From Tubulanus polymorphus (lineage: Eukaryota > Animalia > Nemertea), in the NCBI RefSeq assembly GCF_964204645.1, contig NC_134030.1, positions 16,926,110 through 16,990,109 of the forward strand: a DNA stretch of 64,000 nt. Direction: 5' to 3'. Under the pieces are notes generated by a model. It did no database searches, had not been told where the DNA came from, and saw only the letters and a program-made list of their open reading frames with translations. Of this stretch, positions 930 through 32,526 are shown in pieces (the first letter of the stretch is position 1; each line of letters starts with the position of its first letter). The translations under genes and the position numbers were made by a program.

Positions 930-2514
<1,585 letters not shown>

Positions 2515-11149: not shown

Positions 11150-11657
11150 TTTTCTGTGCAATTTCACATGGGGTTACTTGAGACAGTCTCTCAAGTAACC
11201 CCATATGAAATTGCACAGAAAATTTTAGTCGGGGTGACTTGAGACACTGTCTCAAGTCACCCCTAGTTGGCTGGATAAACATCCGACCTAATTTTTATTT
11301 TTATAGAATAATGATGAATAAAAGATCAATATCTAAGGTCACAGAGTGCACTGAAGCTTTGTCACTGCATATGTGTATTTGGGGTATAAAGAGATGAGTT
11401 ATGCACCCCGAATGAAGTTTTCTGAATGTAATTTTCCTAAGTTATGCAAAACCTTACTTTCGAGATTGACACACTTCAGCTCACTGTGATCTGGACTATT
11501 TAAGGCCCCTAAATTCATGCAATATGAGAACAAAATTCATTCTACTCACCAAGCTATTAGAAAAAGTGTAGATACTTTGTAAGAATGACACAGCAATTAC
11601 TCATCGGCCATATTGTCTCAAGTCACCCCCTTGTCTCAAGTCACCCCAATTTACGGT
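11150..11657. mobile_element. Tc1/pogo-like MITE remnant with internal palindromes
   Basis: ~70-bp palindrome at 11151-11222; repeated GGGGTGACTTGAGACA motifs; end ...CACCCCAATTTACGG|TA. Confidence 0.5.
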
Positions 11658-12891
11658 ACTCAAGTTAATGATGATAAGCAATATTGAGATATTGTAACAA
11701 AGAATACTTGAGATCATTGCATAAAATAGTGAAATATAATAAATGGAACAAGTTAAGGGGTCGGGGTCCAGTTCCACAGTTCCCAGCTAAGATTTGACTC
11801 TGAGTTAACTCATTGAAAATGAACTAACTTTAACTCAGAGTTAACTCTAACACACAACTTTGGAACTGGGTCCAGTTCTACAGTTAATTAGATTTAACTC
11901 TAAAATGAGTTAATTTTCGATGAGATACTTCTGACAACTGTAGAACTGGGTTTTGGAGATTGGTTCATCATTTAAGATCAAGAATACTTGACCACTCTGC
12001 ATAAAATGGTGAAATAACAAATCATTTCGTGCATCACTTTAGACAAGAAATCCTACCGCGTGTGTTATGTACATTAACCTGTAAACGTTTTTTTCAATTG
12101 TTATGCGCAGTCTCACGATAAACGATAAAAGTACGGATCTTATATGAACATTTTGTTCTCGCGCGATCCTAGATTAAAGTTGGAGATTTACCTCTTCTGT
12201 GCAAATAAATGTATAGCGCGTTCGATTTCCTGACTCACCTTTACTCGGGGATGCCCGGGTAACTAATCGAACGCGCCCGGGTTTCCCCGAGTTACGGTGG
12301 ATAAACAAACGACTTTGGGTAATGTCAATCAATGTCAATTAAACTTTATTGATCCGTATGAATACAAACAAGGTATACAAAACTAATACACTACACGCAG
12401 CGATCATACAGAAAGCGAAAAAAATATTAAAAATACACAAAGCAGAATTATATGTTTATTTTGGTGATGCCACGGCTTATACGCGATATTACGCCTAACT
12501 TTCACGGTCCATCTGCTTCCAGATAGTTTAATGTTCGACAATCGGATCTTAATACTCCATCTATCGGAACAGCTAATTAAATATTATACCATAGGAATAA
12601 TTCTAAGTAAAGAAATACATTTTACAATATAGCAATATTCAATTTAGTTGTATTTTTTCTAATGCGATGCGGTAACATTCAGAGGCCAGATTTTTCATCG
12701 CTCAGAGATTTATGTCACTTTCATTAGAGGACAGAAAGAGATACGCTCAGTCTGTCTTGATTGAGATTGATTAAATTCTGGCAGTACATTGCAGGTTTCC
12801 ATAAAATAAACTTCTGTGGTCGTTAGTAAGGGTGTAAATCGAATCGGATTGAATTTACTCGGGTATACCCGAGTAAGTGTCATGGCATCTT

Positions 12892-13479
12892 AGTAATAGG
12901 GGTAATGGGCTTTCAAGCCAAAGGTCGAAGGGTCGAGCTCATTAAAAACAAAACATTAAAAGTAATTTAAAACTATAATATATTTTCATAACCGTGTGTA
13001 TTTTATATTATAACTAAATATTTATTCTAAGATATCAATAATTTAAATTTAAAAAGCATATTGTATTAAATCAATTGGTCGCTCCACTTCGCTACCGCTC
13101 CGCTCCGCGACCAATTGATTTATTTACAATACACAAATTCATATAATCAAATATATTTTTATAATAATAATTATTCTATTATTCAACTGAAATACACACG
13201 GTTATGAAAATATATTATAGTTTTAAATTACTTTTAATATTTGTTTTTAATGAACTCGACCATTCAACCTTTAACCTGAAAGCCCATTACCCCTATTACT
13301 CTTAAAATAATCATGTACATGAATAACATTTAAATTGACAGATTATTCAATATAAAAGTGTAAGCTCTTATAGAATAGATATATAGATATATTTACAACA
13401 TCATTTCAATATTCATATTTGTATGAGTTAGATTTTTAAACATTAAAAGTGTTAGTAAAGTGTGATTGAAATAATGCAT
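12892..13479 (+). repeat. Left TIR; the first 409 bp (12892-13300) form an imperfect palindrome
   Basis: Reverse complement of 30526-31083 apart from small indels. Confidence 0.95.
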
Positions 13480-14159
13480 AGCTGTTTATACTAGAACATG
13501 ATTTTATTTGAGCCTATATACATTTCATGTAATGAACTATTGAATAAATCTATGAATTCACAGCTGTTACAGCTGTTACTATGACGCCGAGACATATGAG
13601 TCATAATATTGCAAACGTGTAGAGAAAATTCTAGAAAGGTGTGCCGGAACCAGATGACGTGGCAGGAAATGAACAGGCGCTGTAACATTACGCTCAGGAT
13701 ATTCTATCTCTCGAAACGAAATTAGGAGTTTATAGTTAACAATTCTAAATCTAAATGTAAATACTGTTTTTTGTAGTTATTAGGGCTATCAAATATGAAA
13801 CCTTTAGATATATTATTTAAGTGTATTTAGTATATCTTTTAGATGGCTAGAGTTGCCGCTAATATCTTTTAGATTAATAAAACGCCATACGCATCAAGAA
13901 GTGATAGAGAAACCAATAGAAATTAGCACAAGAAACACAAGAATCGCCAAAAGATCGACGAAGAAACTATATAAGAATTTCAAAAACATTAAGACTCCAA
14001 TGATTAAGTTTAACATTTGTTGATGTAGTTAAATATTTACCAGCAATTGAAAAAATGTTTGTAATTATAAATTGTATTTATAGAAATCAAATGATGTATT
14101 GGAAGAAACGGCCGAACAACTTGTATAATGTATTGTGTAAATCTGATTGGTGAATTTTT

Positions 14160-14510
14160 ATGTTCGGTCGTTTCTATTCAGAATGAATATATAATTAGGA
14201 TTAGCGCATGCGCATTGATCAAAAGCGCGCACGAATGCGCGGTTTGCTCAGTGGTATGATTTAGATATTTCATGTCGGTTGTTTCTATTTACATAATTAT
14301 ATATAATTATGATTAGCGCATGCGCATTAAGCAAAACCGCGCACGAATGCGCGGTTTGCCTAATGCGAACACGTTTTGATATTTTCTGTGTTCGGTTGTT
14401 TCTATTTTACAGAATTTACATAATGAATATATAATTATGATTAGCGCATGCGCATTGAGCAAAACCGCGCATGAATGCGCGGTTTTGCCCAGGGGTATCA
14501 TTTAGATATC
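14160..14510. repeat. Three ~115-125-bp GC-containing repeats, each with GCGCATGCGCA and an AAAACCGCGCA-(C/T)GAA-TGCGCGGTTT hairpin
   Basis: Units begin near 14161, 14273 and 14389; upstream of the HNH gene. Confidence 0.85.
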
Positions 14511-14626
14511 AAGGAATCGAAACAACTTATCAAAAGCAGCGAGGAATGAAAAAGAATGACGTTGGTCGAAGAAATGGAAGAGGATTCTAAAATATTAACC
14601 AATTTAGTAAAAAATACATATAATAA

Positions 14627-15310
14627 ATGGAACCAGAACAACCACAAATTATCAATATTACAAATAACACTGCTGGTGTTATAAATATATACTACAAGAA
14701 GTGTTCTAAATGTGAATTAGATAAATTAGCTTTAACAGAATTTAGTAAGCGTATGATAAGCAAAGATGGTTTTCAATATTGTTGTAAAACTTGTTTTAAA
14801 CTATATACAATACCAAGAAGATAATATAGAACATTATAATTATTATATGACAGAATATATGAGAGAAAGATATCAAACAGATCTTAATTTTAGATTGAAA
14901 CAATGCTTAAGATCTAGATTAACACAATTATTCAACAAAGAAACACATTCAGAAACACTCTAATCTAATCTAATCTATTGGGTTGTTCAGATGAATTTCT
15001 CAAATCATGGATTATATTTCAATTCGATGATAAAATGAATATAGATAATTATGGAGATTATTACCATATTGATCACGTGTTACCGATATCTAAATTTAAC
15101 ATGAATGATGAATACAATAAAAAACTTATTTGGGGTTGGAAAAATTTAAGGCCTTTAGAAAAGAAAGAAAATCAAATCATATCTAATAAACTAGATTTAC
15201 AGTTATATTTAGAACAGTTAACAAAGGCAAAGAAATTTATTGATCAATGGAACAATGATCCAAATAATGAACAATATGTTCAGGAATTTGATATGAAGAA
15301 TCCGAAATGA
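14627..15310 (+). pseudogene. NCLDV/phage-type HNH (endonuclease VII-like) nuclease with N-terminal CxxC...CxxC finger
   Basis: KCSKC...DGFQYCCKTC, then FRLKQCLRSRL, then GCS...QF...M..DNYG..HIDHVLP...NLRPL...N; three frame pieces. Confidence 0.75.
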
Positions 15311-15619
15311 CTTATCTGGACAGTTATAATTACTGCTCCTAATAGATAAACAAAAGTAGTGAGATATCGAATAGAATTCAAATAAAATATATTAAAAAAA
15401 CAATAACTTCAACTAGCCATTATTTCTATTTTAATTTTTGATATTTTCTTTTACAATTCTTTTCAAAAGAGAATACTTTATATCACAAATAAAAAATACT
15501 AAAAAAACAATAACTAATACTAAAATTCTTTACCTTTAACTAAGCTAGTTTTAATCTAAAGAGATACTGGTATCATTTTATAATACTTATATGTTTTTTC
15601 GCTTTTTTCTCTAATATAA

Positions 15620-16228
15620 ATGTCAAAGAAATCGAGTAAGAATAGTATTGATATTGAAAAGACATTAGATGATTTGGGTATAAGTGATAATAAAGATACA
15701 GTTGTAACTAATTGTGCTCAAGTTAATTGTAATATTGATTATGAATACTATTTATATTGTAAACACCATCTTGAATTACTAATTGCTGGCGGGAAATCTA
15801 AAGAGTTTTTAACTAAGATAATTACTTTTCAAGAACTAGATGCTATGAAACCAAATAAAGTAATAAAATATTTTAAGATTTATGAAGAAGCTAGATTAGC
15901 TATAATAAATGATTCTATTTCAGATGGTATTGTCAAATGTTACTCTAAGTTATGTAACCAGTTAATACCAATTGATGATGAAAATAAATTATATAGTGAT
16001 TTGAAAAATGACTACTTAGTTATGACTGAATTACAAAAATGGGTTGGATATGCTCCATTTCAATTAGGATCGGTTATGACATTAATTTCTACTGGCGTCA
16101 TAACATTTTCGAACATCAAAACTATGGAATATAAATCAGGTAAGAACGAAAAAGATGGCGCCGTACGACACCCAAACGGTGAAACAGAAAACGAATCAGA
16201 ACAAAAATTAACTAAAATAAATGAGTGA
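15620..16228 (+). CDS. Conserved Polinton hypothetical protein
   Basis: Open 202-aa frame, homolog of 9448..10053; TAAATG start. Confidence 0.7.
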   Translation: MSKKSSKNSIDIEKTLDDLGISDNKDTVVTNCAQVNCNIDYEYYLYCKHHLELLIAGGKSKEFLTKIITFQELDAMKPNKVIKYFKIYEEARLAIINDSISDGIVKCYSKLCNQLIPIDDENKLYSDLKNDYLVMTELQKWVGYAPFQLGSVMTLISTGVITFSNIKTMEYKSGKNEKDGAVRHPNGETENESEQKLTKINE

Positions 16229-16589
16229 TGGAGTTAAGAAAAAGGTTAGATCTGAGAAACAAATTAAATGGGCAAGAGAATTAGGTAAAAGATCTTCAGA
16301 ATTAAAAAAAGCTAAGAAAAAGAAATTAACTGATATAAATGAATCACAGACTTGATCTGATATTGATTCAAATAATAATCCATCTAATTCTTCTAATGCT
16401 GGAAGTAATTATAAATTATATATTACAATTGGATTAGTAACAGTTATTATATTATCCGGTATAATATATAAATCAAAATTCAAATCTGATGATAAAGATG
16501 ATTCCAATGATAATAAACCTATTATACCAGAAAATAAGTCAAATGATAAAGTCATTGAAAATAAACCAAGATTATTATTAATGGATTAA
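16221..16589 (+). pseudogene. Small basic single-TM protein, disrupted
   Basis: MSDGVKKKVRSEKQIKWARELG... ends in MD*, like 9986..10342. Confidence 0.6.
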
Positions 16590-16595
16590 AATAAG

Positions 16596-17687
16596 ATGAA
16601 AAAAGAACAATATCTAAGAGATTTATATTATAGCCCAGAGAGTGAAGTATCATATTCTAGTATTTCAGAATTATGGAATAAAATTAAATCTGATAATGAA
16701 AATGGTGATATAAAATATAGTGAATTAAAATCATGGTTACAAAATCAACCAACATATCAAATCCACAAGAAAATGGATAAAACTTATTTAACAAGAAAAG
16801 TTATGGTTTCATATATTGATCAACAATGGCAAGCTGATTTAATTGACATGAAGAACTTAGAAGAATACAACAAAGGATATTTCTGGATATTGAATGTTAT
16901 AGACATATTCAGTCGATACGCATGCTCAATTCCAATCAAAAATAAAACTGGAATAGAAGTTACAAATGCTTTTAAGAATATATTTAAAGAAGCTATTCCA
17001 GATAAGATACAATTTGATGAAGGTAAGGAATTCTATAACAAACATTTTAAAAAACTATTATCTGATAACGATGTAGAATATTTTTAAACACACTCAGATA
17101 AAAAAGCATCTATTATAGAAAGATTTAATAAAACATTGAAATCTAGAATGTGGAAATATTTTACTGCTAATGAAACATATAAATATATCGATGTATTAGA
17201 TGATTTAGTGAAAGGTTATAATAATTCTAAACATAGTTCTATAAATATGAAACCTATACAAGCTAGAAAAGAAGATAATTCGGAAATAGTTTGGAATAAT
17301 TTATATGGAGCGTTTGTTACACATGATTTCGGTGAACCTAAATTTAAAATAAGACAACACGTTAGAATATCTAAATATAGAAAAACCTTTTATAAAGGTT
17401 ATACCCCAAATTTTACAGAAGAAATATTCAAGATCAAAAAGATAATATTAACTAAACCTTTTGTTTATAAATTAGAAGATCTAAAAGATGAAGAAATATT
17501 AGGTTATTTCAATGAACAAGAATTATCACTTGTATCAAACCCAGATGAAATAGAATACAAAATAGAAAAAGTATTGAAAACAAAAACTCTTAAAGGAAAA
17601 AAGTATTCTTTGGTGAAATATAAAGGATACGATGATAAATTTAATGAATGGATTTTATCTAGTAAAATTAAAAGAATAAATGAATAA
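16596..17687 (+). pseudogene. rve integrase with chromodomain, copy B; one in-frame stop at 17085-17087
   Basis: WQADLIDM, IQFDEGKEF and IERFNKTLK (DDE); C-terminal chromodomain YKIEKVLK...VKYKGYDDKFNEW. Confidence 0.92.
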
Positions 17688-18290
17688 AGATTTATATATA
17701 TTTATCCGCATAATATGTTAGTTACTGGTGTAACCAATTGTGGTAAAACACATTTCATATTAGATTTGTTAGAAACTATTTATAAGAATCATTTTGATCA
17801 TATAATATTATTCTGTCCTACTTATGAAATGAATAAAACATATAATAGAGACATAGTTAAGATAAAAAAGTTTATTATATTAAATCCTAAAACAGTAAAA
17901 GAAAATTTAGATAATTGTATAAAAATAGCAATTGATACTTATAAAGGATCAAATACATTATTCATTATAGATGATTGCGCAAATTTACATGATTCAAAAG
18001 TTAGAGAAAGTGAGTTATGTTATTTAGCTCTTTCTGGAAGACATTTTGGGATAACAACATGGGTTTTAAATCAAAAATATAATTCAATTGTTAAAGACTT
18101 TAGGGAGAATATAAGATTTCTAGTTTTATTTTATAACAAAGATAAAAAATCTATGCAACAATCATTGGAAGAAAATCAAATTATACCTACTGAATTACAT
18201 GATGAATATATGAATAAATTAAAGAATAATAAAGGTTCAAAATTATTACTGAGTTTACAATTTCCCTATGAATATAAATTTATAAAATAA
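17680..18290 (+). CDS. A32/FtsK-like packaging ATPase, copy B (1-bp deletion near the probable true start at 17680; open from 17715)
   Basis: GVTNCGKT, IIDD and GRHFGIT motifs. Confidence 0.88.
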
Positions 18291-18299
18291 CTATTTGTG

Positions 18300-18652
18300 T
18301 ACCTATGTATTAGATGCCCTAATACCTGATACCCCATTAGATACCCTAATACCTGATACCCTATTAGATACCTTAAATACTTAAAACCCCCTTTTTTAAA
18401 TATTATTTATACAATTTTCAACCAATTTATTTTTATTTTTTCAACATATATATGAATAAGTTTTAAAATAATAAAGGTTATTTATTATTACTGAGGTTTC
18501 AATTTCCATATGAATACCAGTTTATAAAATAAGATATTTTATGTATAAGATTGTATTAGATATGTATTAGATATGTATTAGATACCTTAAATACCTTAAA
18601 TACTTAAAACCCCCTTTTTTTATTTACTATTATTTTATACAATTTTCAACCT
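18300..18652. repeat. Short tandem and direct repeats at the junction of the convergent transcription blocks
   Basis: TTAGATACCCTAATACCTGATACCC units; duplicated TTAAATACTTAAAACCCCCTTTTTT...TATACAATTTTCAACC. Confidence 0.7.
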
Positions 18653-19521
18653 TTATTACTTTTTGATTTAAATATAATTAATATCTTAATCACTTTCACT
18701 ATCAGACCCCTTAACAATTTATTCAAATTCTCTACCGAATTTTCTTCTTCAAATTCTCTATTATTTTTATACTTATTTTTCACCTTTTTTACCGCATCAT
18801 CAATAGTTGTTTCATTGTTATGCTTATTAATCCAATCAAATTTATCATTATTTTCTACTTTATGTTTCATAGAATCTTTATTAGTGTTTGCTCCTAATAT
18901 TTCATTTACAGTGTTTGATCCTAATATTTCATTAGCATCGGTTAGATCTAATTCATCTTTATTAGGTGTTGCTAATAATAAATCTTCATATATTTTTTCA
19001 CCATTTACTTTTTGATTTGAAACAAACTTTGTAACATATCTAAATGGGTGTTCTATAAATTCTTTTAAACCAACACGTTCTATAACATTATTTATATGTA
19101 CCCTTGTATTCATATGTTTATTCCAATTTGATGTAGCGTTTGAAAATTCACTTTTACAATATCCACAATAATTTCTATTTTCACTAACATTTGATATTAT
19201 TTCATTATAAGATGTAGAAGGTATTACATTATTAGATGTAGGAGGTATTACATTATTAGATGTAGAAGGTATTACATTATTATATGTAGAAGGTATTACA
19301 TTATTAGATGTAGAAGGTATTACATTATTATCAATTACATTACTTAAATTATCAACAACACCACTTTTATTATTATCGATTTCTATTAGTTTAGTTTTAT
19401 AAATTTTGAAAATAGGATCAAATATCAAAGCTATATTACAAGGTATTACATAATATAAACCATCATTATTTTCATGTGTATCGATGTATGGAATATGTTT
19501 ATATACTTTACCTCCTTCCAT
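18646..19521 (-). CDS. Accessory protein with 8-aa repeats (NNVIPSTS x5) and a C2H2/U1-type zinc finger
   Basis: Open 291-aa frame; CGYC...HMNTRVH; 24-bp DNA repeats at ~19205-19330. Confidence 0.65.
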   Translation of the reverse strand: MEGGKVYKHIPYIDTHENNDGLYYVIPCNIALIFDPIFKIYKTKLIEIDNNKSGVVDNLSNVIDNNVIPSTSNNVIPSTYNNVIPSTSNNVIPPTSNNVIPSTSYNEIISNVSENRNYCGYCKSEFSNATSNWNKHMNTRVHINNVIERVGLKEFIEHPFRYVTKFVSNQKVNGEKIYEDLLLATPNKDELDLTDANEILGSNTVNEILGANTNKDSMKHKVENNDKFDWINKHNNETTIDDAVKKVKNKYKNNREFEEENSVENLNKLLRGLIVKVIKILIIFKSKSNKG

Positions 19522-19554
19522 TTATTATATAAATATTTTATTAAAGTTAAAATT

Positions 19555-20802
19555 TTAATACATAACACTATTCAATTGAGAATTTACAATATTTAATTGC
19601 GCGTCAGATATAATATAAATGTGCATTTTGAAATTTTTGATTCCTTTATTCTTTGTCATGAATAATTGTATTCCATCTTAAGTGTTTTGTAATTTTTTTC
19701 CAGAACCATGTAATGAATTATCCTCTGTTGTTCTAAAATCTAACCATAATGCATATTTATTACCGGTATAATAATCAATTTGATTAATATTACAATTTTC
19801 AAATGATTTTACTTTTTCATTCATAAAATGTTTTCTAATTTCTGGCCATTGATCTATCATTCTCATTCCTTGACAAAATATTTTATTTGCTATTGCTTCG
19901 ATAGTTATTTCTACTTTTGTTATTTCAGGATTATAATAATTATCAACATTTATTGCACCATTAGTATATGTTGCAATGGTAAAAAATATTAATATACCTT
20001 TAATAGATCTTCTTGGGAAGTTAATATTCTCATTAATAATTTCATCATTTGCATTAATAGTTACAGTTTTCAATTTATCAATATAATCATATAATAATGA
20101 AAATCCTTGATTGTATTGAGTTTGAATTATACTTGAAATATTTTCATCAGTTACTGTGTCATATTCTAAACATATATTCGATAATTTATAACTCATATCT
20201 TTATTAACGCTAGATATTACAATTTCATTTACAGGAGCAAATGTTATTTCGAATATAACGTCTTCTTGAATTGCGTATTTATATAAAGGTGCATTGTTAT
20301 TTATCAATTCAAAGTCTAATGGAATTTTATATTTGCTTCCATCTATACTTTTTATCAATTTATCTACAGCATTAGTTAATATTGCGCTATTAGCTTCTGA
20401 TCTTAATTTATTTTGGTTTTCTGATTGGATGCCTTGAAATATCATATTATTTCTATTTTCTTTAGTTAACCATAAATCTTTATAATGCATAAATAAATTA
20501 TAATCATCTAATGAGAAAACTGTTTCTGGGCCAATCTTTATAGTTAATTTTTTAATCAAATATCTTCCAACATTATCAACAACATAATTATTATTATTAC
20601 CGGTTACTTTTATATCGGCTGATAAATAAATACTATTTGGAACATAAAAAGTATTTTGTGTTAATCGAGGAATTCTAACATATAAAGTTTCATCAGGATT
20701 AATATTAGAAGGGTTATGAGTAATTATATGATGTGATCTTTCTGCTTTAATAGCATTAGATATTCTATGATTCTTAGAAGGATTGATATAACTCCCACTC
20801 AT
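19555..20802 (-). pseudogene. Major capsid protein (double jelly-roll, ~415 aa); one premature stop at 19678
   Basis: Beta-rich protein of MCP size within a Polinton; frame continues past the stop (DGIQLFM...SDAQLNIVNSQ); assignment from size, context and resemblance to animal Polinton MCPs. Confidence 0.8.
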
Positions 20803-20829
20803 TTATTTAACAAATTAATTAATTATTTA

Positions 20830-22286
20830 TTTTTTATCATGTTTACTAATCCAAAAATAATAGCACTTACAACTGTAATTAAAAATAAAATAATATGTTC
20901 AGCAGCAAAGTTAATAATGTTTCCTGCAGATTTCAATATAAAACCAACAATTGATGCAATAACTCCTGGCAATGCTGCAGCAGATTGATTTCTTTGATAG
21001 TTCCCATAAATATTTTGCTCATTTCTTTAAACCATCCTTAACTTTATCTTGTATAGAATTATCATTCGGGGGTTAATCTGGTTTATTGGGAGTAGGAGTA
21101 GATTTTAAAGCATTTGATATTGCTAAACCTATTGTTGTAAATAACATAGTTACAGCTGTTAGAATTGAAAGAATTGTTATTCCTTCTAACTTGAATAATA
21201 ACTTTATTCTGTCTTTCAATGATATTTCAGAATCTGGTTTAATCAACAAATCTTTAACAACAACTTTTAATCTATTTATATTATAATCATATGATTTAAA
21301 CAATAATTTAATTTCTTCTTTTTGTAATTCTATGTTATATTCTAAATCATCTTTTTCTTTTTCTAAATACGCATTTCTTTTTTTTATTCGATTTCTTCAA
21401 TAACTTTATTATCTCTATCTAATTTTAGTTGTTCCGATTCTTTTCTTGATTTAAATAATACATCTTCTAAAGTTCTAATTTTTAAATCTCTTATACTTTT
21501 ATCATGCGCAATTTTATCTGATGCAAGTCTTATACTTTTAATTTCTCTAATTGCTTCATCAGAAAATATATTATTTAAATCTTCTAATTGTTGGTCTGTT
21601 GTATCAATTAATCCATTTGGTAAAAGTTTTTCAATTGGAACTTTATTTGTTTTAAGTTTACTAGTTTTGGAAGTTTTATTCTGTTCAGAAGTTGTTTCCG
21701 TTTCTGGATTATCATCGATTATTTTATATAAGTCATCAATTTTTTGACTAAATATTCTTATATTATCATCTCTTTCTTCTTGTGTAACATCAGTTATTTC
21801 ATTACTAATACTTATTCTCTTAATTCTAGATGTTTCTAAATTTCTCAAAGTTGATTCCGCTAATATTTTATTTAGTTTTGTCTTTTGATTAGTGATATCA
21901 ATATAATAATCACCATCCAAACGATAATAATATTTACCTTTAAAAAGTTTTAATTTTTGTACTAAAAGTCTGGCGCCTCTATCATTTATATTATATCCAG
22001 ATTCTTTAAATACACGTTGAAAATCATACATAAAATCAATATTTTCAAGATCTTCCTTTGATAAACCTTGATTTTCATTTTCAGGATTTATTCTCGATCT
22101 AGTTCTTCTATCAAATTCATCTGTTGATGGGGCTTTAGAACCACTATCTGCTAAATTAGAATTATATGCTAGTTCATTACCATCGTCAATATTAGTTTCT
22201 GCATCATTATAATCATCATCAATATATCCTTTATTATTATTTCCCATGCCGTCCATTTCATAATCTTCTCCACCTTCTACATCCAT
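20830..22286 (-). pseudogene. Acidic/coiled-coil plus multi-TM protein, disrupted
   Basis: ORFs 21384..22286 and 21073..21303 plus downstream SAAALPGVIASIVGFIL segment. Confidence 0.7.
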
Positions 22287-22299
22287 TTACATAATGAAA

Positions 22300-23728
22300 A
22301 AATTAAAAATCTAAAATATAATATTCCTCCGATTACAATTCCTATACAAGTTATAGCTAATTTAGTATTTTCATGGGATTTATTATCATCATTTATTTTA
22401 ATTATATCATGTTGAATATTATCAGTTTTTATATTTTCTGATGTATTATAATCCGGTTTAGAATCATTATTTGATTTAATATTATTAGTTTTAGTTTCTG
22501 TTGATTGAATATGTTTTTTATTTTTTTCACCTTCCATTTATTTTGGAGCAGTAATAATCTTTTTATTTATATCACTTAATCCAAATGAATTATTTACTGT
22601 TGCAGTTTTAATTAGATTATTGTAACCAATTATGTTTCCCATCTTTAATACTAAATCATTAGATATAATTTATAGATTAGGGCCTATACAATAATTTTAT
22701 CTAATATGTGATTTACCTAAATAATTTTGATATCTTACAATGTTTTCTGGAATCGATCTATTTTTATCATTATGAATGGAATCTTCAAATAATACTTTGA
22801 ATTGTTTCTGTGTATCAAATGATGTATTCAAATTTCCAATTATTGGGGATCTTGTTTCAACTTGCGCACCTAAAATACATATCAAATAAGTTCTAATAGA
22901 TTGATTTATTCTTTGTATACCTGATTTTGTAAAACCTTCATTATTTTCTAAAATGAAATAAACCCAACCATTATTGTTTTCTTGTTTTGAATTATCATAA
23001 AATGTCGGTAATTTATTGAAATTTAATGTTTCTAAATCCTTAGTTTCTATTTTACCATAACCTAATTTATTACTATAGATATTATACAAACTATTAGATG
23101 GTATGGGAAGTGCACAATATTCTGCAATCTTTTTAGGGCAAGGAAGTGATCTTATTGTTCCAATTTTTGTTCTAAAATCAGAATTATTTATATCTATATT
23201 AAATTCATTACAAATTTTATAAAACTTTGATAAATTAATATTATTATCTAATTCTTTAGAATACCTAGATCCTGGTAAAGCGCACTCTAATTCATTTAAT
23301 ATTATTCTGATTTGAAAGTATGTATGAAATCTAAATAAACTTTGAATTAATTTATATTTAGAATTATTCAAATGATCATTCCAACTAATTCCACATCCTG
23401 TTGTTACACAATAAACAGCAAAATTTAATTGGTTCTGCCAATACTTCATATTTCAGATTTTAATAATCATTGAATTAGATTTTAATACTTCAGATTTTAA
23501 TAATCATTGTTTTTCATCTTTCAATTTTTAAAAATTAATTAAATATACATGAAATATATTTTCCATCTTTGCATTAAAATTATTAGTTTCAGTAACATAA
23601 ATTTCTAAATTAGTTAATGAATCTAAAACTTCATTTCTATATGTAATATCTTTATTAAAATCTATTGCTAGAATATTATATTTAATTGATTTATTATATT
23701 GGAAAGCTTTTGGAAAACTATCTACCAT
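22300..23728 (-). pseudogene. Conserved Polinton hypothetical protein with C-terminal TM anchor (probably one ~450-aa gene)
   Basis: ORFs 23528..23728, 22697..23449 and 22277..22537 are colinear with copy A; only the first has a TAAATG start. Confidence 0.7.
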
Positions 23729-23736
23729 TTATTTAA

Positions 23737-24159
23737 TTAAAAAATTAATAATTTATCTTGTTCTTCAACTGTTATATGACCATTTAAACTTATTATATAA
23801 TCTAGTGTATTCTTCAATTTATTAATTTCTTTTATATTAGTTTTAATTTTTTCTTTATTACTTTTTATATTTAATTTTGAACTTATACCAGTTAAAACAC
23901 TTGAACTTAATCCTAATACACCAATTGATATAGCTAAAGGTGTTAATGGGCTGAATATTGCTAGAAATGTTATTACAGAACTAATTGTAACCGAACCACT
24001 GATAATAAGATAATACATAATATTACTTTTTAAATATTTTTTCTTTTTTATCTTTAAGTCACTTTCAAATTCTAATATTTGTTTTTCTAAATATGTTTTT
24101 AATTTAGTTTTATTTATATCATGGGGAATAATATCAATACTATCAACTTTATCTTCCAT
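23737..24159 (-). CDS. Two-TM membrane protein
   Basis: Open 140-aa frame with a hydrophobic hairpin; T7-GCTAAA-TAAATG start. Confidence 0.7.
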   Translation of the reverse strand: MEDKVDSIDIIPHDINKTKLKTYLEKQILEFESDLKIKKKKYLKSNIMYYLIISGSVTISSVITFLAIFSPLTPLAISIGVLGLSSSVLTGISSKLNIKSNKEKIKTNIKEINKLKNTLDYIISLNGHITVEEQDKLLIF

Positions 24160-24178
24160 TTATTTAGCAAAAAAATTA

Positions 24179-24601
24179 CTAATTAGTAAACTTATACGCC
24201 AAAAATATAACAATAACTGTTCCACCTAAAATCCAAATTATTTCATATTTCTTCTGTTCATTACTTGGGGTATAATAATCTGATAATTTAGGTTTGTATA
24301 GATGTAATTTTTCTTTATTTGTTACTGCGTTATATAAACTCATTGCATCATCAACTGATTGAAAATCTCTATGTGAAATCTTCTGATCATATAATTCTTT
24401 ATTGATGTAATCCATATAGTTTTGTCGTTTTTCTCTATAATCTTACGCTGCTTTATTGTATTTCTCTAATGCTAAGTTATGTCTCCTTTGTTCTCCTAAT
24501 GAACTATTTTTATCAATATGCTTAAATGAATAACCGCCACCAGTAAATGCTAAAGCGTTAACAATTGCCGATCCTATAATAGTTATAATTGCAGAAGCCA
24601 T
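24179..24601 (-). pseudogene. Small protein with N-terminal hydrophobic helix (MASAIITIIGSAIVNALAFTGGG) and C-terminal TM; one internal stop
   Basis: Manual translation upstream of ORF 24179..24415; TAAATG start at 24601. Confidence 0.65.
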
Positions 24602-24625
24602 TTATTTAGCAAAAAAATTATTCAT

Positions 24626-24846
24626 TTATATGGGAGGAATATATTTTTGTTTTTCCAAATAATCAATAGTTAAATTAGATAAAGTAACTGCTAATGTTAA
24701 TTTTAAAATATCATTTATATCAAATCTATCAACATTAACACTTCCCATTTTAAATACTTTTTTAATACCATTGAATAACCAACAGTTCCAACTGATAGTA
24801 TTGCGCCATTATATATTCCAGTTATTATCCACTTATTATCACTCAT
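24626..24846 (-). pseudogene. ~73-aa two-helix hydrophobic protein with a 1-bp frameshift
   Basis: MSDNKWIITGIYNGAILSVGTVGYSMVL / ...DILKLTLAVTLSNLTIDYLEKQKYIPPI; TAAATG start. Confidence 0.55.
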
Positions 24847-24957
24847 TTATTTATCAAAAAAATTACTATCATCAAAATATTTAGTTAACTTATTTATGAT
24901 TATTTCAACATTTATTTCATTACTAGTTTCATTTGTATATATTTCAATTATTATTTT

Positions 24958-25203
24958 TTAGATATCATCGATGATAAAATCTTCATCTAATTCATAAAAT
25001 CTTAAAGATTCTCTAATTAAATTAGTAATCTTTTCTACATTTAAAGTTTCTTTATCTATTGTTTTTTCATACTCAAATGTTGTTTCATTAGAAAATGTAA
25101 TATTTTTGATATGTGTAATTACATCAGTAATGTTGAATTTCATTTCTTTCTCATGTTTAAAATCAAACCCAAAACATATACTCGGCCCAACAGTTATATT
25201 CAT
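24958..25203 (-). CDS. Hypothetical viral protein (possibly truncated)
   Basis: 81-aa ORF with T6-N7-TAAATG start. Confidence 0.5.
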   Translation of the reverse strand: MNITVGPSICFGFDFKHEKEMKFNITDVITHIKNITFSNETTFEYEKTIDKETLNVEKITNLIRESLRFYELDEDFIIDDI

Positions 25204-25219
25204 TTATATAGTGAAAAAA

Positions 25220-26029
25220 TTACTCTTTACATCTTATAACTAATTCATATATCACAGGAAAGTTATTCAAATCAATTAAATAACCATTATGATTTCTTAT
25301 TTCTAATTTAAAATTATTGAAATGTGGAATACAAGGTTTGAAATCACATTCAGTTAAATTATAATTTATTTGAGTTCCAAATTGTTTAACATTTTTAGAG
25401 GTAAAATATTTAGTATACTAGAACTACAAATTGTTTCTTTAGTTGCTTCGAAAGTTTTTGTAGGCTCGATTAAATTGCAATAAATATAAAAGTGTGTAAA
25501 AGGTATTATATTTGAGCTGCCTTCTGCGTTTCCAGTAACTGTAAGAGGTTTAATTCCTAACATTTTAGCCAGTGGTTTGTTTACCATAAATTTATGTTGT
25601 TCATTAGATATCTTTATTCTTATTTTATTAGTACTATCAATTTTATGAAATTTAATTTCAAATACAGAAGTGCCCGCGATTTTCAACCGAGCTCTTCTAT
25701 TAATTTCCTGCGCTAATGATTCTAAATTATATAATCCTGGTTTTAAAAATATATGAAACCATTTATCTTTATTTCTCATATAAATCATAAACCCTCTATG
25801 TTCAAAAGTTTTATCTGATATATTATAAAAAGGATTACATAAACTTATATTAACTAATTTTATTACATAAACTTATATTAACTAATTTTAAATCTATACA
25901 ATTCTTAACTAATTTTAAATCTATACAATTCTTAAATTCTCTATCTAATTGTACTAGTAAATTATGAGATTTATAATTTGTAAGACTTCTAGAATCAACA
26001 AATATTCTGTATTCTTTTAATTCCGCCAT
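25220..26029 (-). pseudogene. Minor capsid protein / penton (single jelly-roll), frameshifted
   Basis: MAELKEYRIFVDSRS...PGLYNLESLAQEIN...FYIYCNLIE...FKLEIRNHNGYLIDLNNFPVIYEL pattern typical of Polinton/virophage pentons; micro-duplications at ~25840-25935. Confidence 0.7.
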
Positions 26030-26046
26030 TTATTTTACATATTTTC

Positions 26047-26400
26047 TTATTCGAAATCTATTTCATGGTGCCCTTTTTCATTCTTACCTTTGTATATGAA
26101 ATAGAAATCTCCAGAACATAATTCTTCTAAATCTTCACTTGATAATCTATGAAATCTATCTGGTAAATATGTTCTGAATTTATATGTATTTCCTTTTAAT
26201 CCTTCATATTCTAAGTGTATAACTAATTTATCTCCATAGTTATTAGTAACTGTAACAATATCTGTAATTAGATATTTCTTATGGATTGTTAATTCTGTTA
26301 ACTTTTTGAATTTATAATCTACAGATTTTACATTTGTGATATCTTTAATTCTATCTAGAAATAATTTGTTGTTCTCACTGTGCGCTTGTTTACTCTCCAT
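26047..26400 (-). CDS. Small pPolB-adjacent protein, putative OB-fold ssDNA-binding protein
   Basis: Open 117-aa frame with F..L.EL...Y.I...YG...LP.RF pattern; function is inference. Confidence 0.5.
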   Translation of the reverse strand: MESKQAHSENNKLFLDRIKDITNVKSVDYKFKKLTELTIHKKYLITDIVTVTNNYGDKLVIHLEYEGLKGNTYKFRTYLPDRFHRLSSEDLEELCSGDFYFIYKGKNEKGHHEIDFE

Positions 26401-26501
26401 TTTAATAACATATTTTTATTAAAATTTGATTAACACGTTAGAATTCTTTTCATTATCTCGTTCTCTTTTGTTTCTTCTCTTTTAAATTTTAAGTATTCAT
26501 C

Positions 26502-29500
26502 TTAATTACAACCATAAGCAACTGTATGAATTCCATCATCTAAAATATATCTTTTATCATCAAATGGGTTTAGACTTATCTTTTCAATTTCTTCAATAAA
26601 CATTTCATGATTTTCAGATCTTAAACATCTCATCTTATGTTTTCTAACTTCTTCATTGAATATACAATTGATGTAATCTTTGAAATGAATATTCTTTTCT
26701 ACTACACTTTTGGTTATTCCTTTTAACTTTTTAGCTTGATGTTCTTTAGTTTTATATGAATACATTTTAGATCTAATACCTATGACCTCTATCATTTCTT
26801 CACCACCTAATTCATCCTTAAACTTCCCTGGAACTTTTTTATTATCATTGCTAAACAATTCATGATCTTTAGGATAATTACTGAAATCAAAATGATGTTT
26901 TAATGTTTTTAAATCATCAGTTATGTTATCAGTTTTTATCTTTAATATGTAACTGTCGGTATCAAAATATAATATTTCTATATGTTTTTCTCCAAAAAGT
27001 GGTTGTAATACATTATAATAGAATTCATACATTAGTAATTTTGATAATTCTAAAACTGAAGCACCAACATAGATTGGTTTATTAAATTTCATTGATGTTC
27101 TTCTCATTTTAACTGCAGCTAAATTTTCATCAAATATTCTGTTACCTATAAATTTAGGATATGATCGTAAATGCCTTATCCTTTTGCCATTACTTACTAA
27201 CTCAATATCATTTCTATTTCTAATATTTTCACAAGTCTTACCATAGAATGCATTATTCATTAACTTGAAGAAATCTTTCTCGAAATCAGTTTTAGCTTCA
27301 GTTCTCTGTTTGGTGTTAAAATCTATATATTTTTCTAACCACTTAGATTGGCTGAATGAAATATATCTATGTACTTTTTTTTAGAACCATTCCTTAATTC
27401 AAATAAAACTTTAACATTCTATAATGTACTACATAATTATATTTATCTTCTTGATTTACCATTAACTTTTCTGTATGAATATGATTTTCAGGTTTAATTC
27501 TTTTTTGGTAATTTGATAATTCTTCATGAGTTACAGTTTTATGTTCGGGACAGTATGCTAGATTTCTAGATTTAAATTTAATATGTTCAGGATATTCTAA
27601 ATCTACAACAAAAAAGTAACCAGTATCTGAATCATCTGCAATATCTAGAATTCTTTTCTTCCAATCAAATTTATCATTATTTTCATTCTGTAAAACTTCA
27701 CTTATTTCAAATACTTCATAAGGTTGTGGTTCCATCATTGCCCAACCATACAAATTATTTGCATCTATATATAATAACTTATATCCAGGGTTATCATTTA
27801 CATTGAAATATCTATCACCTAATACACCTGAAACTCCTCCTCTTATAGATTTTTCAAATAATAATAATTGATCTATATTTGTTAACAAATACATTTTTAT
27901 ATCTGTAAATTTTAATCCACAATCCCATGTTAATCCTGGTGATGAATAACAATGACAAGGATTAATATTAAAATATTTTAGGTTTACATCTCGAAACCTT
28001 TCGAATATATCGGTTAATAATAATACATCTGATTTTAAATATAAATCTACTAATTGCCCATGATTTTCTATTTTGAAGTGATTCCAAATATTCAATGTTC
28101 TATTATATACTTCATCTTTAACATATTCATTTTTTAATTCATCATAGAATTGTTCTTTCAATAATTCAGTTATGTTAAAATCATTATGATTTTTATAGAA
28201 AGAATATGGCATTGCTCCTTTATATCTCATTAATTTAAAATCATCATTATTTGGGTAATATTCTTTTAATATCTTTAATTCATCATCAACTAATGATTTT
28301 GATAAGTTATCTAATGAACTATTTAAAAATCTATATGAATCTATAAATCTTAGACAACCAAATTGGAATGATATATAATTCTCAGATGTTTTAGGTAACA
28401 TTCTAAATTTATAAGTTGGTATTTTATCTTTTGATCTATTTGAATTTAATCTTTCTATTTCGTTATTAATTTCTTCTATTTTATGGCATAACTGTTTGAT
28501 GAATAAATGTGCATCATATCCTGATAGATTATGAAATATAACTGGAACAAAATTAATTTTCTTAGCTTGTAAGTTACAATTCTCATGTGCAGCGCCTCTA
28601 AACTTTCCGTTCAAATGATCATGGTCTCTTACTTTTTTATCTTTATAATTAAATATCTTTTCACAATACTAACATTTATCTGCAAACGCAAATGCTTCTT
28701 TATCTTCTTCTGTCATTATAATTTCTATATTTGTATTCAATAATTTACTAAATCTTATTTCATATTCAATTAATAAGTCACAAAAATGATTGATAACATT
28801 TTCATTTCTATAATGATAATATTCACTTTCAATTAGTTCTGGATAATCAGATTTAATATATAACCCAAAAGCAGCAGCTGATTGATGAATCTTTTTAATA
28901 GTATTTGTTTTTGGTGGTTCTTCAGAATAATCATTTTCATTAGAATTTAATTTCTTTCTCTTATAATATATTTCTTTTCTATCTTGATCAGTTAGTTCTT
29001 TATTTAATGATTCAAAATCTCCATATATTACAAATGGTACTTTATTTTTGTAATCATATTTTTTGAATTCTAATATTTTATCCTTTTCATTTGGTAAAAC
29101 TAATTTACAATAATCATGATTTTTACATAATTGTTTATGATTTAATAATGTACTTTCATTACTGAATCTATGTAAACATTTTCTACAAAGATATATTTTA
29201 TGGTGATCACTTTCTGATTTAAAAAATAAATCGATTTGTTTAATCCACATATAATGATTCTCATAATATAGTATATCTATAACATCGTTTGAATCATAAT
29301 ATTTTGATAGATATAAAGGTTCTAATGTATAATGTTTTATATTGTTACCTTTTGTATTTGGTAATTTGATTAAATCAAATACATTTATCTTTATATTATT
29401 ATCTCTTTCTATTTTTGGGATGTTTTTAATTATATCAGGATACTTATCTATCTTATAATTATTTTCAAATGGTTTATAATGAGTTAATCTAAAACTATGT

Positions 29501-30471
29501 TGTTTAAAATCTTCAACTGGGTGTAAACAACTTATTATAGCCCATAGAAAACATTTATCATCTTCATTTTGTACATTTATTACAGCATTAGTTTTAAATG
29601 GTAGTTTAATATAACTTGATGCTTCAATATCTGGTTCTTTATAATATGATACATTATTTTCATCTATTGGTTTTGATTTAGTTAACTTATTATATTTTGT
29701 GTTATAAACATGTAAAGTCATAAATATTATTTCATCAAATATTAAACCAGATCCTTCAAAATATTTCTCTTCTATTTTAGTTTTTACTTCATTATAACAT
29801 TTATCTAATTTATCATCTATATGTTGTTTTGAAATAATATGTTGTGAATGAGAATTTATATTATATATTGGTTTATCTTCAGATTTTATGAATTTAACTT
29901 TAGAAGATATACTTATTTTAGGATATTCAACATCAGTTATTATTTTTATAATATTTTTCATATTTTCTAAATGTTTTTTATTTTCTTCTAATGTTTTTCC
30001 TTTATGAAATTTAAACTCGATAGCTGCTGGACCAATTTCACTTTTAAATGCTTCGGTTATCTCTATATCTTTTTTATTATCTAATGAATTAATATAATTT
30101 CTTACATCTTCCATGTATGGTATTTTATTGTTTAATTTATTTTTTATGCTTTTAATTGTCTTCTGTTTCTTATCATTATCTTCATAAAAATAATCTTCGC
30201 CTAAAATAACATTATTCATATTTCTAATATGACTTTTAGATTTTAAATGTTCTTTATAATATCTTTTATCACTGAATGATTGATTAAATGTATCACATTT
30301 GTATGTTTCTTTTTCATTCTTTAATTCATCTAATTTAGTTTCTAATATATCATCTTCATATTCTAATTTCAATTTATTCTCTAAATGTGTTTTAGTTTTA
30401 TTGTGTCTTGCTTTTTGGGATTTATCTATATTGATATAACATGTTGGGCAGTAGTACTTATTTGCTTCCAT
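26502..30471 (-). pseudogene. Protein-primed-type family B DNA polymerase (pPolB) with N-terminal Zn fingers, OTU-like domain and HNH/endoVII-like insert
   Basis: Exonuclease motifs YGDFES, FHNLSGYD, YLKSDV; polymerase motifs YIDANNLYG, KLMNNAFYGKT, YFDTDS; OTU-like DDKCFLWAI...ENHY; DHDHLNGKFRGAAHENCN; in-frame stop at 28669 and frameshift near 27390. Confidence 0.95.
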
Positions 30472-30525
30472 TTTAATACTAAATTTTTTTTTTAAATTGA
30501 TTTTAGAAGTTTAATGATTTATATC

Positions 30526-31083
30526 ATGCATTATTTCAATCACACTTTACTAACACTTTTAATGTTTAAAAATCTAACTCACACAAATATGAATATTGAA
30601 ATAATGTTGTAAATATATACTTTTATATTGAATAATCTGTCAATTTAAATGTTATTCATGTATATGATTATTTTAAGAGTATTAGGGGTAATGGGCTTTC
30701 AGGTTAAAGGTTGAAGGGTCGAGTTCATTAAAAAACAAAACATTAAAAGTAATTTAAAACTATAATATATTTTCATAACCGTGTGTATTTCAGTTGAATA
30801 ATAGAATAATTATTATTATTAAAATATATTTGATTATATGAATTTGTGTATTGTAAATAAATCAATTGGTCGCGGAGCGGTAGCGAAGTGGAGCGACCAA
30901 TTGATTTAATACAATATGCTTTTTAAATTTAAATTATTGATATCTTAGAATAAATATTTAGTTATAATATAAAATACACACGGTTATGAAAATAAATTAT
31001 AGTTTTAAATTACTTTTAATGTTTTGTTTTTAATGAGCTCGACCCTTCGACCTTTGGCTTGAAAGCCCATTACCCCTATTACT
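30526..31083 (-). repeat. Right TIR; the last 406 bp (30678-31083) form an imperfect palindrome
   Basis: Reverse complement of the left TIR. Confidence 0.95.
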
Positions 31084-32300: not shown

Positions 32301-32526
32301 ATAGATTCCGCTTGTCACTTCTTGACTTCAATAGAATAATTCGATATTACACTTTATAAGTTTATTATTAACTTCGACATGTAAAATATTTATTCTAAAC
32401 TTCAACAAATAAATGCAAATGCATTGTGTATAAAATTAGACATTATTTCTAAAATAACAAACATTACTTTGAACTAAGTAAAACAAGGGTAACATGAAAC
32501 CATATCAAGCCAACAAACTTTGAAAA

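Follow-up and report, generated by a model that had tools for sequence, protein, structure and literature searches.

Terminal palindromes of a Polinton from Tubulanus polymorphus are predicted to fold into strand-specific hairpins beside a protein-priming polymerase

Background

Polintons (Mavericks) are described as elements with a protein-primed DNA polymerase B (pPolB) carrying a terminal-protein (TP) domain and a vOTU domain, an rve integrase, a packaging ATPase and a double jelly-roll MCP (bioRxiv 10.1101/2024.03.18.585575). Their exit from the chromosome and subsequent copying have been modelled, and we found no demonstration of either in the literature; the published model, according to a figure legend, requires an excised strand. 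In the portions of the literature available to us there was no description of Polinton terminal hairpins, and a single figure carried the unexplained label 'palindromic repeat'.

The closest described elements are endogenous virophages of Halocafeteria seosinensis (subtypes 1, 2, 5 and 6) and PLV subtype 4, which have terminal palindromes (bioRxiv 10.64898/2026.07.28.741278). As at the locus reported here, these lie within the TIRs beside the target duplication of elements with an rve integrase, and hairpin priming was proposed there, untested according to the available preprint text; the idea of hairpin priming at such ends is therefore already in print for protist virophages and PLVs. Those palindromes (52 nt in subtype 5) belong to protist elements preferentially encoding non-pPolB replicases, whereas ours are ~400 nt long and accompany a pPolB in which TP and vOTU are both retained. 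In the text of that preprint as available we found no mirrored substitution, no strand bias, no G·A apex and no single orientation of the kind reported below.

Two further systems offer analogies. At Streptomyces telomeres, as described in PMC4513846, priming by a terminal protein goes together with hairpins of the 3' strand that are closed by sheared G·A pairs (end patching by Tpg/Tap), and fold-back extension is there a Mn2+ side reaction. The left end of MVM is likewise a 3' hairpin with purine mismatches and an arm asymmetry that leaves one arm active, and one hairpin orientation is reported for LuIII (PMC1185569). Parvoviruses differ from the present element in having ssDNA, nicking by NS1 (HUH), a host polymerase and neither pPolB nor TP. 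One orientation is also found at the MVM left end. The telomeres of poxviruses and asfarviruses are mismatched A+T-rich closed hairpins, which occur in two orientations (flip and flop) and are processed by a resolvase; the A+T-rich mismatched hairpin is shared with our element, which has one dominant orientation and open AGT...ACT ends.

Results

The element and its genes

The window (the whole stretch of 64,000 nucleotides that was analysed) contains a Polinton with the following features.

12886..12891 (strand not applicable): left target-site duplication CATCTT
12892-31083: Polinton, 18.2 kb, between CATCTT/CATCTT 6-bp duplications
14969..15310 (+): ORF resembling an HNH endonuclease, the C-terminal part of a disrupted gene (weak Pfam match to HNH_4, E=0.01)
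16596..17687 (+): integrase of retroviral type with a chromodomain, stop-interrupted (rve E=2e-9, Chromo E=4e-5)
17688..18290 (+): packaging ATPase, A32-like (Pox_A32 E=9e-13)
19678..20802 (-): gene matching PBCV-1 capsid (E=4e-8)
25366..25872 (-): candidate minor capsid protein, a lead from Adeno_Penton_B matching 18% of a single cluster of look-alikes
26502..30471 (-): gene for the protein-primed DNA polymerase B, split into three in this copy (DNA_pol_B_2 E=4e-11)
29254..29553 (-): vOTU protease domain, catalytic Cys to His, both present (invariant in 46/46 rows)
29704..30024 (-): terminal-protein domain, beta-alpha-beta-beta-alpha-beta, with a Ser predicted as the linking residue in GSG at ~29749-29751
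31084..31089 (strand not applicable): right target-site duplication CATCTT

TIRs with AG...CT ends, a 6-bp target duplication, an rve integrase (though broken by a stop) and a pPolB with TP and vOTU domains (though in pieces) are all present. The AGT...ACT ends, the 18-kb length, the Ser between helix 2 and strand 4 and the vOTU Cys/His pair also resemble the Polintons of bioRxiv 10.1101/2024.03.18.585575 as described there. The gene set differs in that a maturation cysteine protease, common but not universal in Polintons, was not found in this copy: there was no Pfam match in 15 element ORFs, two tblastn queries had no match and a third, fused query was matched by its integrase part only. Two mCP-like tblastn queries likewise had no match in the element, and MCP searches of viral_contigs returned none. 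Among the same 15 longer ORFs, neither an HUH/Rep nickase nor a telomere resolvase was detected, only the weak HNH. A neighbouring decayed Polinton (1 to ~10860) yielded no terminus and no palindrome.

The polymerase N-terminus has kept a PRD1-like terminal-protein fold with a Ser in the predicted linking loop, and both fold and Ser position agree with the description in bioRxiv 10.1101/2024.03.18.585575, which, in the part available, also links the TP fold to the little-finger fold of Y-family polymerases. The best Foldseek matches of the TP region were Y-family polymerases, including the little-finger domain (E between 1e-3 and 2e-2, with no match at E<=0.001). The TP/vOTU priming region is intact, with a predicted priming Ser.

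Terminal palindromes and arm differences

Each TIR opens with a long palindrome (self-BLAST E ~1e-85) and runs 35-180 bp further inward; the standard Polinton model, as published, invokes TIR-to-TIR annealing only, while the TIR here begins with a long fold-back.

12892..13479 (+): left TIR, 588 bp (many sister copies have ~444 bp; 549 reads exit at 13335)
12892..13300 (-): left terminal palindrome, 409 bp, with the 3' tip on the minus strand, which folds better than the plus strand
12892..13003 (+): left outer arm, the true end, with C-type alleles and two GGTCGA boxes (~2500 reads, with unlike flanks before 12890-12892)
13004..13067: left bubble, outer side, A+T-rich, with some pairing towards the apex
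13068..13082: left inner stem, 5' side
13083..13106 (-): left apex, for which a sheared-G·A zipper is predicted; the minus strand has GCGNAGC/GCGNNAGC mini-hairpin motifs
13107..13121: left inner stem, 3' side
13122..13188: left bubble, inner side
13189..13300 (-): left inner arm, T-type alleles; the inner AGTA is rarely or never an end
30526..31083 (-): right TIR, 558 bp
30678..31083 (+): right terminal palindrome, 406 bp; the plus strand bears the 3' tip
30678..30790 (+): right inner arm
30874..30892 (+): right apex, in this copy 5 nt shorter than its left counterpart (longer form in 1044/1555 reads)
30972..31083 (+): right outer arm, ends TACT-3' (1961+300 reads, with unlike flanks behind 31083/31084)

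The terminal ~112 bp are present four times in the element. Five differences between outer and inner arm are common to both ends, at position 25 (A/G) and at 27, 28, 35 and 47 (C/T), and each of them is a G·T wobble on the 3'-end strand and an A·C mismatch on the opposite strand. Position 63 is a sixth such site, present at the left end and in 77% of reads. By themselves, 5-6 wobbles on one strand amount to only modest evidence (p ~0.02-0.03, one-sided), and the weight is carried by the read data and by the relatives. The bubbles are ~50-60 nt and ~90% A+T. Neither the 409-bp nor the 406-bp unit has a 6-bp duplication of its own.

Predicted fold and apex

DNA fold prediction gave -128.3 and -128.3 kcal/mol for the 3'-end strand of the two ends and -119.5 and -118.1 kcal/mol for the 5'-end strand, energies that favour G·T by construction and are not independent of the wobble count. 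In the predicted fold the 3' terminal T pairs flush with the inner A of AGTA and is directed into the genome, giving a paired 3'-OH in a 3' terminal hairpin as at the parvovirus rolling-hairpin terminus.

The apex of the 3'-end strand is symmetric (GGA-GC-GGA-GC-GGTA-GC-GAA-GT-GGA) and can be resolved into Watson-Crick, G·T and G·A motifs as far as a 4-nt loop, while the other strand does not parse at all; the parse was matched by 15/200000 shuffles in a post hoc test. Five GCGNAGC/GCGNNAGC motifs occur in the 18.2-kb element, all in the apices and all on the 3'-end strand. Judged from the sequence, the apex is predicted to form a symmetric zipper of sheared G·A pairs capped by a GCGNNAGC mini-hairpin, a structure open to the 3' strand only. 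High stability and occurrence at replication origins are ascribed to motifs of the GCGNAGC/GCGNNAGC type (PMC13037366), and general support for G·A and GGA motifs is given in PMC6061790. A short-hairpin subfamily in the reads places CGAG opposite CGAG, which is a tandem sheared-G·A block as described in PMC10085684, and hairpin length (~120 versus 409 bp) and interior vary by subfamily.

The original prediction had given the element's coordinates, its two ~400-bp terminal palindromes, the fourfold ~112-bp repeat and five shared wobbles that are G·T on the 3' strand, all of which stand, as does its placing of the terminal T on the inner A when that strand folds. Folding both strands, as it had proposed, favoured the 3'-end strand. 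Its A+T-rich bubble of ~55 nt also holds, and its GC-rich apex is refined from an open loop to the symmetric G·A-type parse.

Sister copies in sequencing reads

Illumina reads from another sample bearing the same species label (one sample) cover arms, bubbles and apex evenly, and the palindromes are therefore not an assembly artefact. Flank depth corresponds to ~25 element-equivalents in this sample, and the palindrome-to-interior depth ratio of 2.1 indicates two palindromes per copy.

Mirror partners formed 6 pairs among 10 outer and 11 inner variable arm sites (P=3.4e-5; reads unphased and count taken from the 40/123 variant rows listed); five pairs keep Watson-Crick pairing and one gives G·T. 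Five one-sided arm changes among the variants listed would break pairs if unaccompanied. Many variants are at 22-34% frequency and possibly represent one subfamily, and mirror changes can also be obtained by arm-to-arm conversion without selection.

Whole-hairpin inversions or solo units make up <10% of ends among integrated copies of this sample, a level at which rare solos are possible. Host flank at the inner AGTA was seen in <242 reads versus 2261, strand-switch joints within the arms in ~100 reads in total at a depth of 1400-1600, and the inner boundary showed no common loose end. The palindrome is family-wide, and the asymmetries favour folding of the 3'-end strand. Neither of the first two refuting conditions named in the original prediction, a palindrome confined to this copy and arm mismatches random as to strand, was borne out, and the checks proposed with the original prediction came out in favour of covarying arm substitutions (with the caveat on phase) and of wobbles that stay G·T on the 3' strand across copies, and against flip and flop orientations.

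Hairpin ends in other Polinton lineages

Terminal hairpins adjoin pPolB in five other lineages (L005, L008, L046/L049, L047 and L097/L099/L110), reaching down to ~33% pPolB identity. Outside the window the ratio of G·T to A·C on the 3' strand is 11:3 (p=0.03; L003 and L106 left out, and the uncertain L015, L062 and L088 uncounted). GAA loops are on the 3'-end strand in L005, L097 and L099, and in L005, L047 and L097 the outermost 10-19 bp pair without any mismatch. Counter-examples are L008, with a purine-rich apex on the 5'-end strand, L046, with no G·A apex and wobbles of 3:2, and L009 (67% pPolB identity), with an outer-type end lacking the inner arm; wobbles in L047 are 1:1, and the L015 hairpin apparently lies ~30 nt inside the tip of a putative end.

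Of 50 loci with 1300 bp or more upstream of pPolB, 3 had an AGT-type palindrome in that region, one of which could not be oriented; most ends were not visible. An ungapped AGT...ACT scan gave 4/122 loci versus 0-2 in shuffles, a weak margin. The 17-nt terminal pattern had one match in viral_contigs, L004 on a 241-kb contig, which is omitted from later counts, and no further copies were detected in the four assemblies behind L097/L099/L110/L094. In a tree from a quick search (79 rows, without L047 and L102 because of their short length, and with L003 and L106 still labelled hairpin) the hairpin loci are scattered, and no claim on origin is supported.

Several candidates were rejected as terminal palindromes: L106 sits inside a Polinton, between protease and ATPase; L003 has viral genes on both flanks and L102 host repeat on both sides; L084, L045/L086 and L089 are dispersed or internal; L081 is a direct repeat of a self-complementary motif; L083, L007 and L115 are low complexity or satellite; L109 lies within the pPolB region; and L032 could not be oriented.

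Discussion

The Polinton ends described here represent a concrete strand-specific structure with conserved non-canonical pairs. The one printed case ties palindromes mainly to non-pPolB elements; here they coexist with an intact priming region, and they do so across a span reaching ~33% polymerase identity. The question of exit and copying is reduced to the scale of an oligonucleotide: the 3' strand as template, primer or nuclease substrate.

The ends likely act together with the protein primer and not in its place. We favour, tentatively and with rather less than even confidence, a 3'-strand hairpin that serves as a folded single-strand origin for protein priming, as at Streptomyces telomeres. 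A strand displaced or released as ssDNA would snap back locally at its 3' end, with no need for an 18-kb panhandle to form first. Initiation by the polymerase-terminal protein would take place opposite the terminal ACT at the 3' tip; the hairpin would then be unrolled, and copying would proceed through the outer arm, the apex and the inner arm into the interior. Such ordered copying would, we propose, keep the orientation without the help of a resolvase. Owing to the G·T sites, the inner arm (GGTTGA) could differ from the outer (GGTCGA) in duplex DNA while the fold still pairs, so that only the outer AGTA would be read as an end. Against this folded origin stands the fully paired 3'-OH, which is a ready primer whose extension has no known stop in the model. 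Protein priming on a folded 3' strand with sheared G·A is how Streptomyces telomeres work (PMC4513846, as far as available), but these differ in their unrelated proteins, internal bidirectional replication, several short palindromes and unpaired tip template, so that the likeness is an analogy only. Were Streptomyces, parvoviruses and Polintons to share the same G·A-capped 3' hairpin, the convergence would be striking.

Hairpin self-priming as a replacement of protein priming is weakened by the kept TP fold, Ser and vOTU Cys/His; an asymmetric, MVM-like step alongside protein priming is a possibility that we consider doubtful. First strands would be protein-primed and the folded 3'-OH of the displaced strand extended, the products would be a hairpin-closed duplex and an inverted dimer, with cutting of the dimer confined to the outer arm in the asymmetric manner of the MVM left end, and an end losing its palindrome would be rebuilt from the other TIR. 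The 3' terminal base flush on the inner AGTA and aimed into the genome, the perfectly paired termini of L005, L047 and L097 and the TIR continuing past the palindrome are as this route would have them; arm asymmetry with a single orientation is the MVM pattern (PMC1185569, in part), and hairpin priming has been proposed for related protist elements (bioRxiv 10.64898/2026.07.28.741278, available text). The resolving cut and end-repair step that it requires are purely putative, the 15 ORFs scanned offer only the weak HNH, and a 3' end could not prime from the apparent position of the L015 hairpin. In its broadest form, which we hold to be equally doubtful, a widespread pPolB Polinton clade would make its first strand by TP priming and its second by self-priming from the 3' hairpin, and the G·T wobbles would encode an asymmetry like that of MVM, such that only the outer arm is cut and integrated; if true, adenovirus-type and parvovirus-type replication would be linked in one element.

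At the end of an element, it is the 3' strand that retroviral integrases cut. Strand-specific folding, pairing to the last base and one orientation would also be accounted for by an exit signal, in which the hairpin, on transiently single-stranded host DNA, mimics a duplex end with a host tail and the integrase or another nuclease cuts after ACT, freeing the end for copying out; this purely inferential reading we consider unlikely.

Still less probable is a functionless palindrome, a fold-back copying accident kept alike by arm or end conversion, with wobbles left by strand-biased deamination. The subfamily differences in hairpin length and interior, the features missing or reversed in L008 and L009 and the possibility of mirror changes without selection would suit it, but different lineages use different G·A motifs on the same apex strand, the five mini-hairpin motifs are confined to the apices, and the wobbles persist over copies and are not converted away. 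Long palindromes are moreover usually unstable.

Covalently closed telomeres of the poxvirus/ASFV type, opened before integration, were raised in the original prediction and share the mismatched A+T-rich bubble and the terminal position; they predict flip and flop in similar numbers, i.e. about half of copies inverted, which the inner-AGTA and strand-switch read counts do not show, and the same-strand wobbles fit one folding strand and the terminal protein is kept, so that this very improbable reading is largely refuted for integrated copies. That the 409-bp unit is a separate mini-element and the Polinton a composite transposon, an alternative suggested by the AGT...ACT ends on each unit, is scarcely credible given the lack of 6-bp duplications around either unit, inner-AGTA exits at <10% of termini with no common loose end there, a depth ratio showing no large excess, and a TIR that continues inward past the unit.

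Terminal palindromes of the Polinton

The element is flanked by CATCTT duplications. Its TIRs, 588 and 558 bp long, start with palindromes in which arms of ~112 bp are followed by an A+T-rich bubble, then by an inner stem of 15 bp that is capped by a short apex:

12892-31083, Polinton
12892-13300, left palindrome, 409 bp, 3' tip (...TACT-3') on the minus strand
30678-31083, right palindrome, 406 bp, 3' tip on the plus strand

The original prediction of fold-back ends with G-T wobbles on the strand carrying the 3' tip (3'-end strand) was borne out, and these palindromes are a real feature of the element ends. All five arm-to-arm differences common to both ends are G·T on this strand, and folding of both strands showed it to be the more stable, with predicted energies of -128.3 kcal/mol at each end vs -119.5 and -118.1 kcal/mol for the opposite strand. 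The palindrome had no match anywhere else in the 64-kb window.

The left apex (24 nt; GGA GC GGA GC GGTA GC GAA GT GGA on the 3'-end strand) lies within a GGTCGC/GCGACC stem. On the 3'-end strand the apex can be parsed symmetrically into GNA/GNA blocks together with pairs of normal or wobble type, down to a 4-nt loop, and the complementary strand gave no parse whatever under this rule; 15 of 200000 shuffles parsed equally well, the rule having been picked after the sequence was seen. The longer apex form is the commoner (1044 of 1555 reads). The GGA/GGA zipper is a defined structure. Partial support for it comes from the accessible part of PMC6061790, and GCGNAGC/GCGNNAGC, reviewed as mini-hairpin motifs in the accessible part of PMC13037366, occur five times in the element, all within the two apices and on the 3'-end strand.

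Genes and priming region

Predicted genes comprise an HNH-like remnant, an rve integrase with chromodomain, an A32 ATPase, a double jelly-roll capsid protein and a protein-primed DNA polymerase B (pPolB); no protease gene was found in the element, and in the window copy the integrase, the capsid protein and the polymerase are each interrupted or truncated. The priming region is kept in the N-terminal frame of the polymerase. In the predicted structure of this N-terminal piece, residues 11-117 (beta-alpha-beta-beta-alpha-beta), the GSG serine is placed between the second helix and the last strand, the site given for the linking residue in the accessible text of bioRxiv 10.1101/2024.03.18.585575, and the closest structural matches were Y-family polymerases with weak E-values. 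This serine is invariant in 14/14 aligned rows, as are the vOTU Cys and His in 46/46 rows. Named distant relatives of the polymerase come from a mollusc and an insect; with the Harbinger- and Mutator-type neighbours of the element they suggest that the host is an invertebrate.

Sister copies and subfamilies in reads

We read 12% of the raw Illumina run X5, from another sample under the same species label. Depths of 25 in the flank, 1328 at the palindrome centre and 631 in the element interior (palindrome:interior ratio 2.1) correspond to ~25 copies with two palindromes each, provided that the flank is single-copy. Reads running into unlike flanks numbered ~2500 at the left tip and 2261 at the right tip. 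No loose end at the AGTA of the inner (interior mirror) arm was seen among the best six X5 rows per end (smallest 289 and 242 reads), so solo 409-bp units and inversions of the whole hairpin are below ~10%, with one orientation dominant. Strand-switch joints within the arms (~100 X5 reads in total) are explicable as variants that differ by indels or by subfamily.

Further subfamilies have the outer 45-57 bp in common and differ in their interiors. One, from reads on window 30721-31040, has a ~120-bp hairpin with ~32 nt between the arms and CGAG opposite CGAG (tandem CGAG blocks are described in the accessible part of PMC10085684); another departs at 12948/31027 (~1100 reads). In one short-hairpin variant T·G is changed to C-G.

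Among unphased arm variants (40 listed of 123 rows; two sites private to the window copy removed), 11 inner and 10 outer sites vary, and six are mirror partners (P=3.4e-5), with Watson-Crick pairing kept in five and G·T made in one. Four one-sided changes convert a wobble to Watson-Crick and one adds G·T; five are pair-breaking unless their partners fall outside the 40 listed. Many of these arm changes may belong to one subfamily.

Relatives

Following a scan of 122 pPolB loci (L-numbers) and a context check, terminal hairpins were left at L005, L008 (partial), L046/L049, L047 and L097/L099/L110, with 33-82% identity to the window polymerase over a 424-aa segment (L047 and L110 absent from this comparison). 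Arm transitions (G·T:A·C, 3' strand) were 3:0 in L005, 3:2 in L046, 1:1 in L047, 3:0 in L097 and 1:0 in L099, that is 11:3 pooled (p=0.03) and 17:3 with the window included. L005, L097 and L099 carry GAA loops on the 3' strand, and purines make up 26 of the 31 nt of the L047 apex. Counter-examples are L008, whose apex is purine-rich on the opposite strand, L046, from which the G·A apex is absent, and L009, which lacks the inner arm despite an outer-type end. C/T contrasts resembling that between the window's outer and inner arms occur in L005, L008 and L009. Of the 50 loci where the DNA upstream of pPolB is long enough, only three have a palindrome of this kind there, one being the unorientable L003; most ends lie outside view.

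At L003, TGAT...ATCA bounds a branched palindrome (4657-4840) that lies between a zinc-finger ORF and pPolB, both pointing away from it, as if the two ends were joined via a single palindrome; this could be the junction of a circle, or the assembler may have jumped from one arm to the other. A single ORF (2740-4248) there appears to fuse a protease-like N-terminus to an rve integrase. A ~220-bp fold-back element occurs twice in L106 (4560-4777 and 19998-20226), with one copy inside a largely intact Polinton between the protease and ATPase genes. In L102 a host tandem repeat is interrupted by a 610-bp fold-back (5185-5794) that contains repeated hairpins and is strongly strand-biased (G·T pairs 15 vs 4). 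The 30 Polinton-like pPolB loci L094-L123 come from assemblies deposited under bacterial or archaeal names and are probably host contamination.

Possible function of the fold

The terminal palindrome is family-wide, has one dominant orientation, shows mirrored changes and has the potential to form non-canonical pairs in a strand-specific way; it is accompanied by a retained protein-priming region. The comparative evidence points to a strand-specific fold, which the 3'-end strand would adopt once single-stranded; its function is a proposal. The leading reading, plausible if somewhat short of probable, is that the hairpin provides a local origin at which terminal protein and polymerase would initiate at the 3' tip. 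The polymerase would then unroll the hairpin, so that orientation would be kept and a resolvase would not be needed, a mode of working like that of Streptomyces telomeres, via unrelated proteins (PMC4513846, accessible part). The outer arm carries GGTCGA twice and the inner arm GGTTGA then GGTCGA; the wobbles would allow the inner arm a sequence of its own when double-stranded (GGTTGA vs GGTCGA), so that only the outer end would be used.

A less favoured possibility is hybrid self-priming with asymmetric resolution, resembling the left end of minute virus of mice (PMC1185569, accessible part). We consider it unlikely that the hairpin signals exit, directing a cut that would free the 3' end from host DNA, and a neutral origin of the palindrome is more doubtful still. 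Poxvirus-type closed ends, considered alongside the single dominant orientation, seem very improbable, and a composite transposon, alongside the rarity of solo units, scarcely credible.

The ends of this element extend a recently described kind of terminal palindrome. In Halocafeteria, virophages and one PLV subtype have palindromes within their TIRs (52 nt in subtype 5), according to the accessible text of bioRxiv 10.64898/2026.07.28.741278; they preferentially accompany non-pPolB replicases (the supplements may list pPolB-bearing cases), and hairpin priming is proposed there. For Polintons with pPolB, the accessible literature, to which neither subscription journals nor the first Polinton articles belong, gave no account of terminal hairpins of this length, of wobbles biased to one strand or of G·A apices.

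Internal repeats and surroundings

Within the element, 14155-14509 holds three ~113-bp repeats, at least two with a GC-rich palindrome, GCAAAACCGCGCA...TGCGCGGTTT, which we take to resemble baculovirus hr origins/enhancers, and 24-bp tandem repeats (19174-19354) in an ORF encode NNVIPSTS-like units. Positions 1-10860 hold another Polinton of this lineage, now decayed (~72-91% DNA identity in segments) and differently arranged: its capsid block is inverted relative to integrase/ATPase, and it has a 1.07-kb tandem duplication at ~5700-7700; no terminus is visible in this interval. Short inverted and direct repeats of GGGGTGACTTGAGACA at 11150-11660 are probably a non-autonomous DNA transposon. 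The interval 31338-33141 holds a Harbinger-type transposase and, facing it, an ORF that is presumably Myb/SANT-like; from the annotated ATG it is ~250 bp upstream to the Polinton end, which lies within the same open frame. At 50980-55100 an ORF that we take to be a Mutator-like transposase has its 3' part repeated in tandem copies of 703 bp, with 100% identity across the stretch compared.
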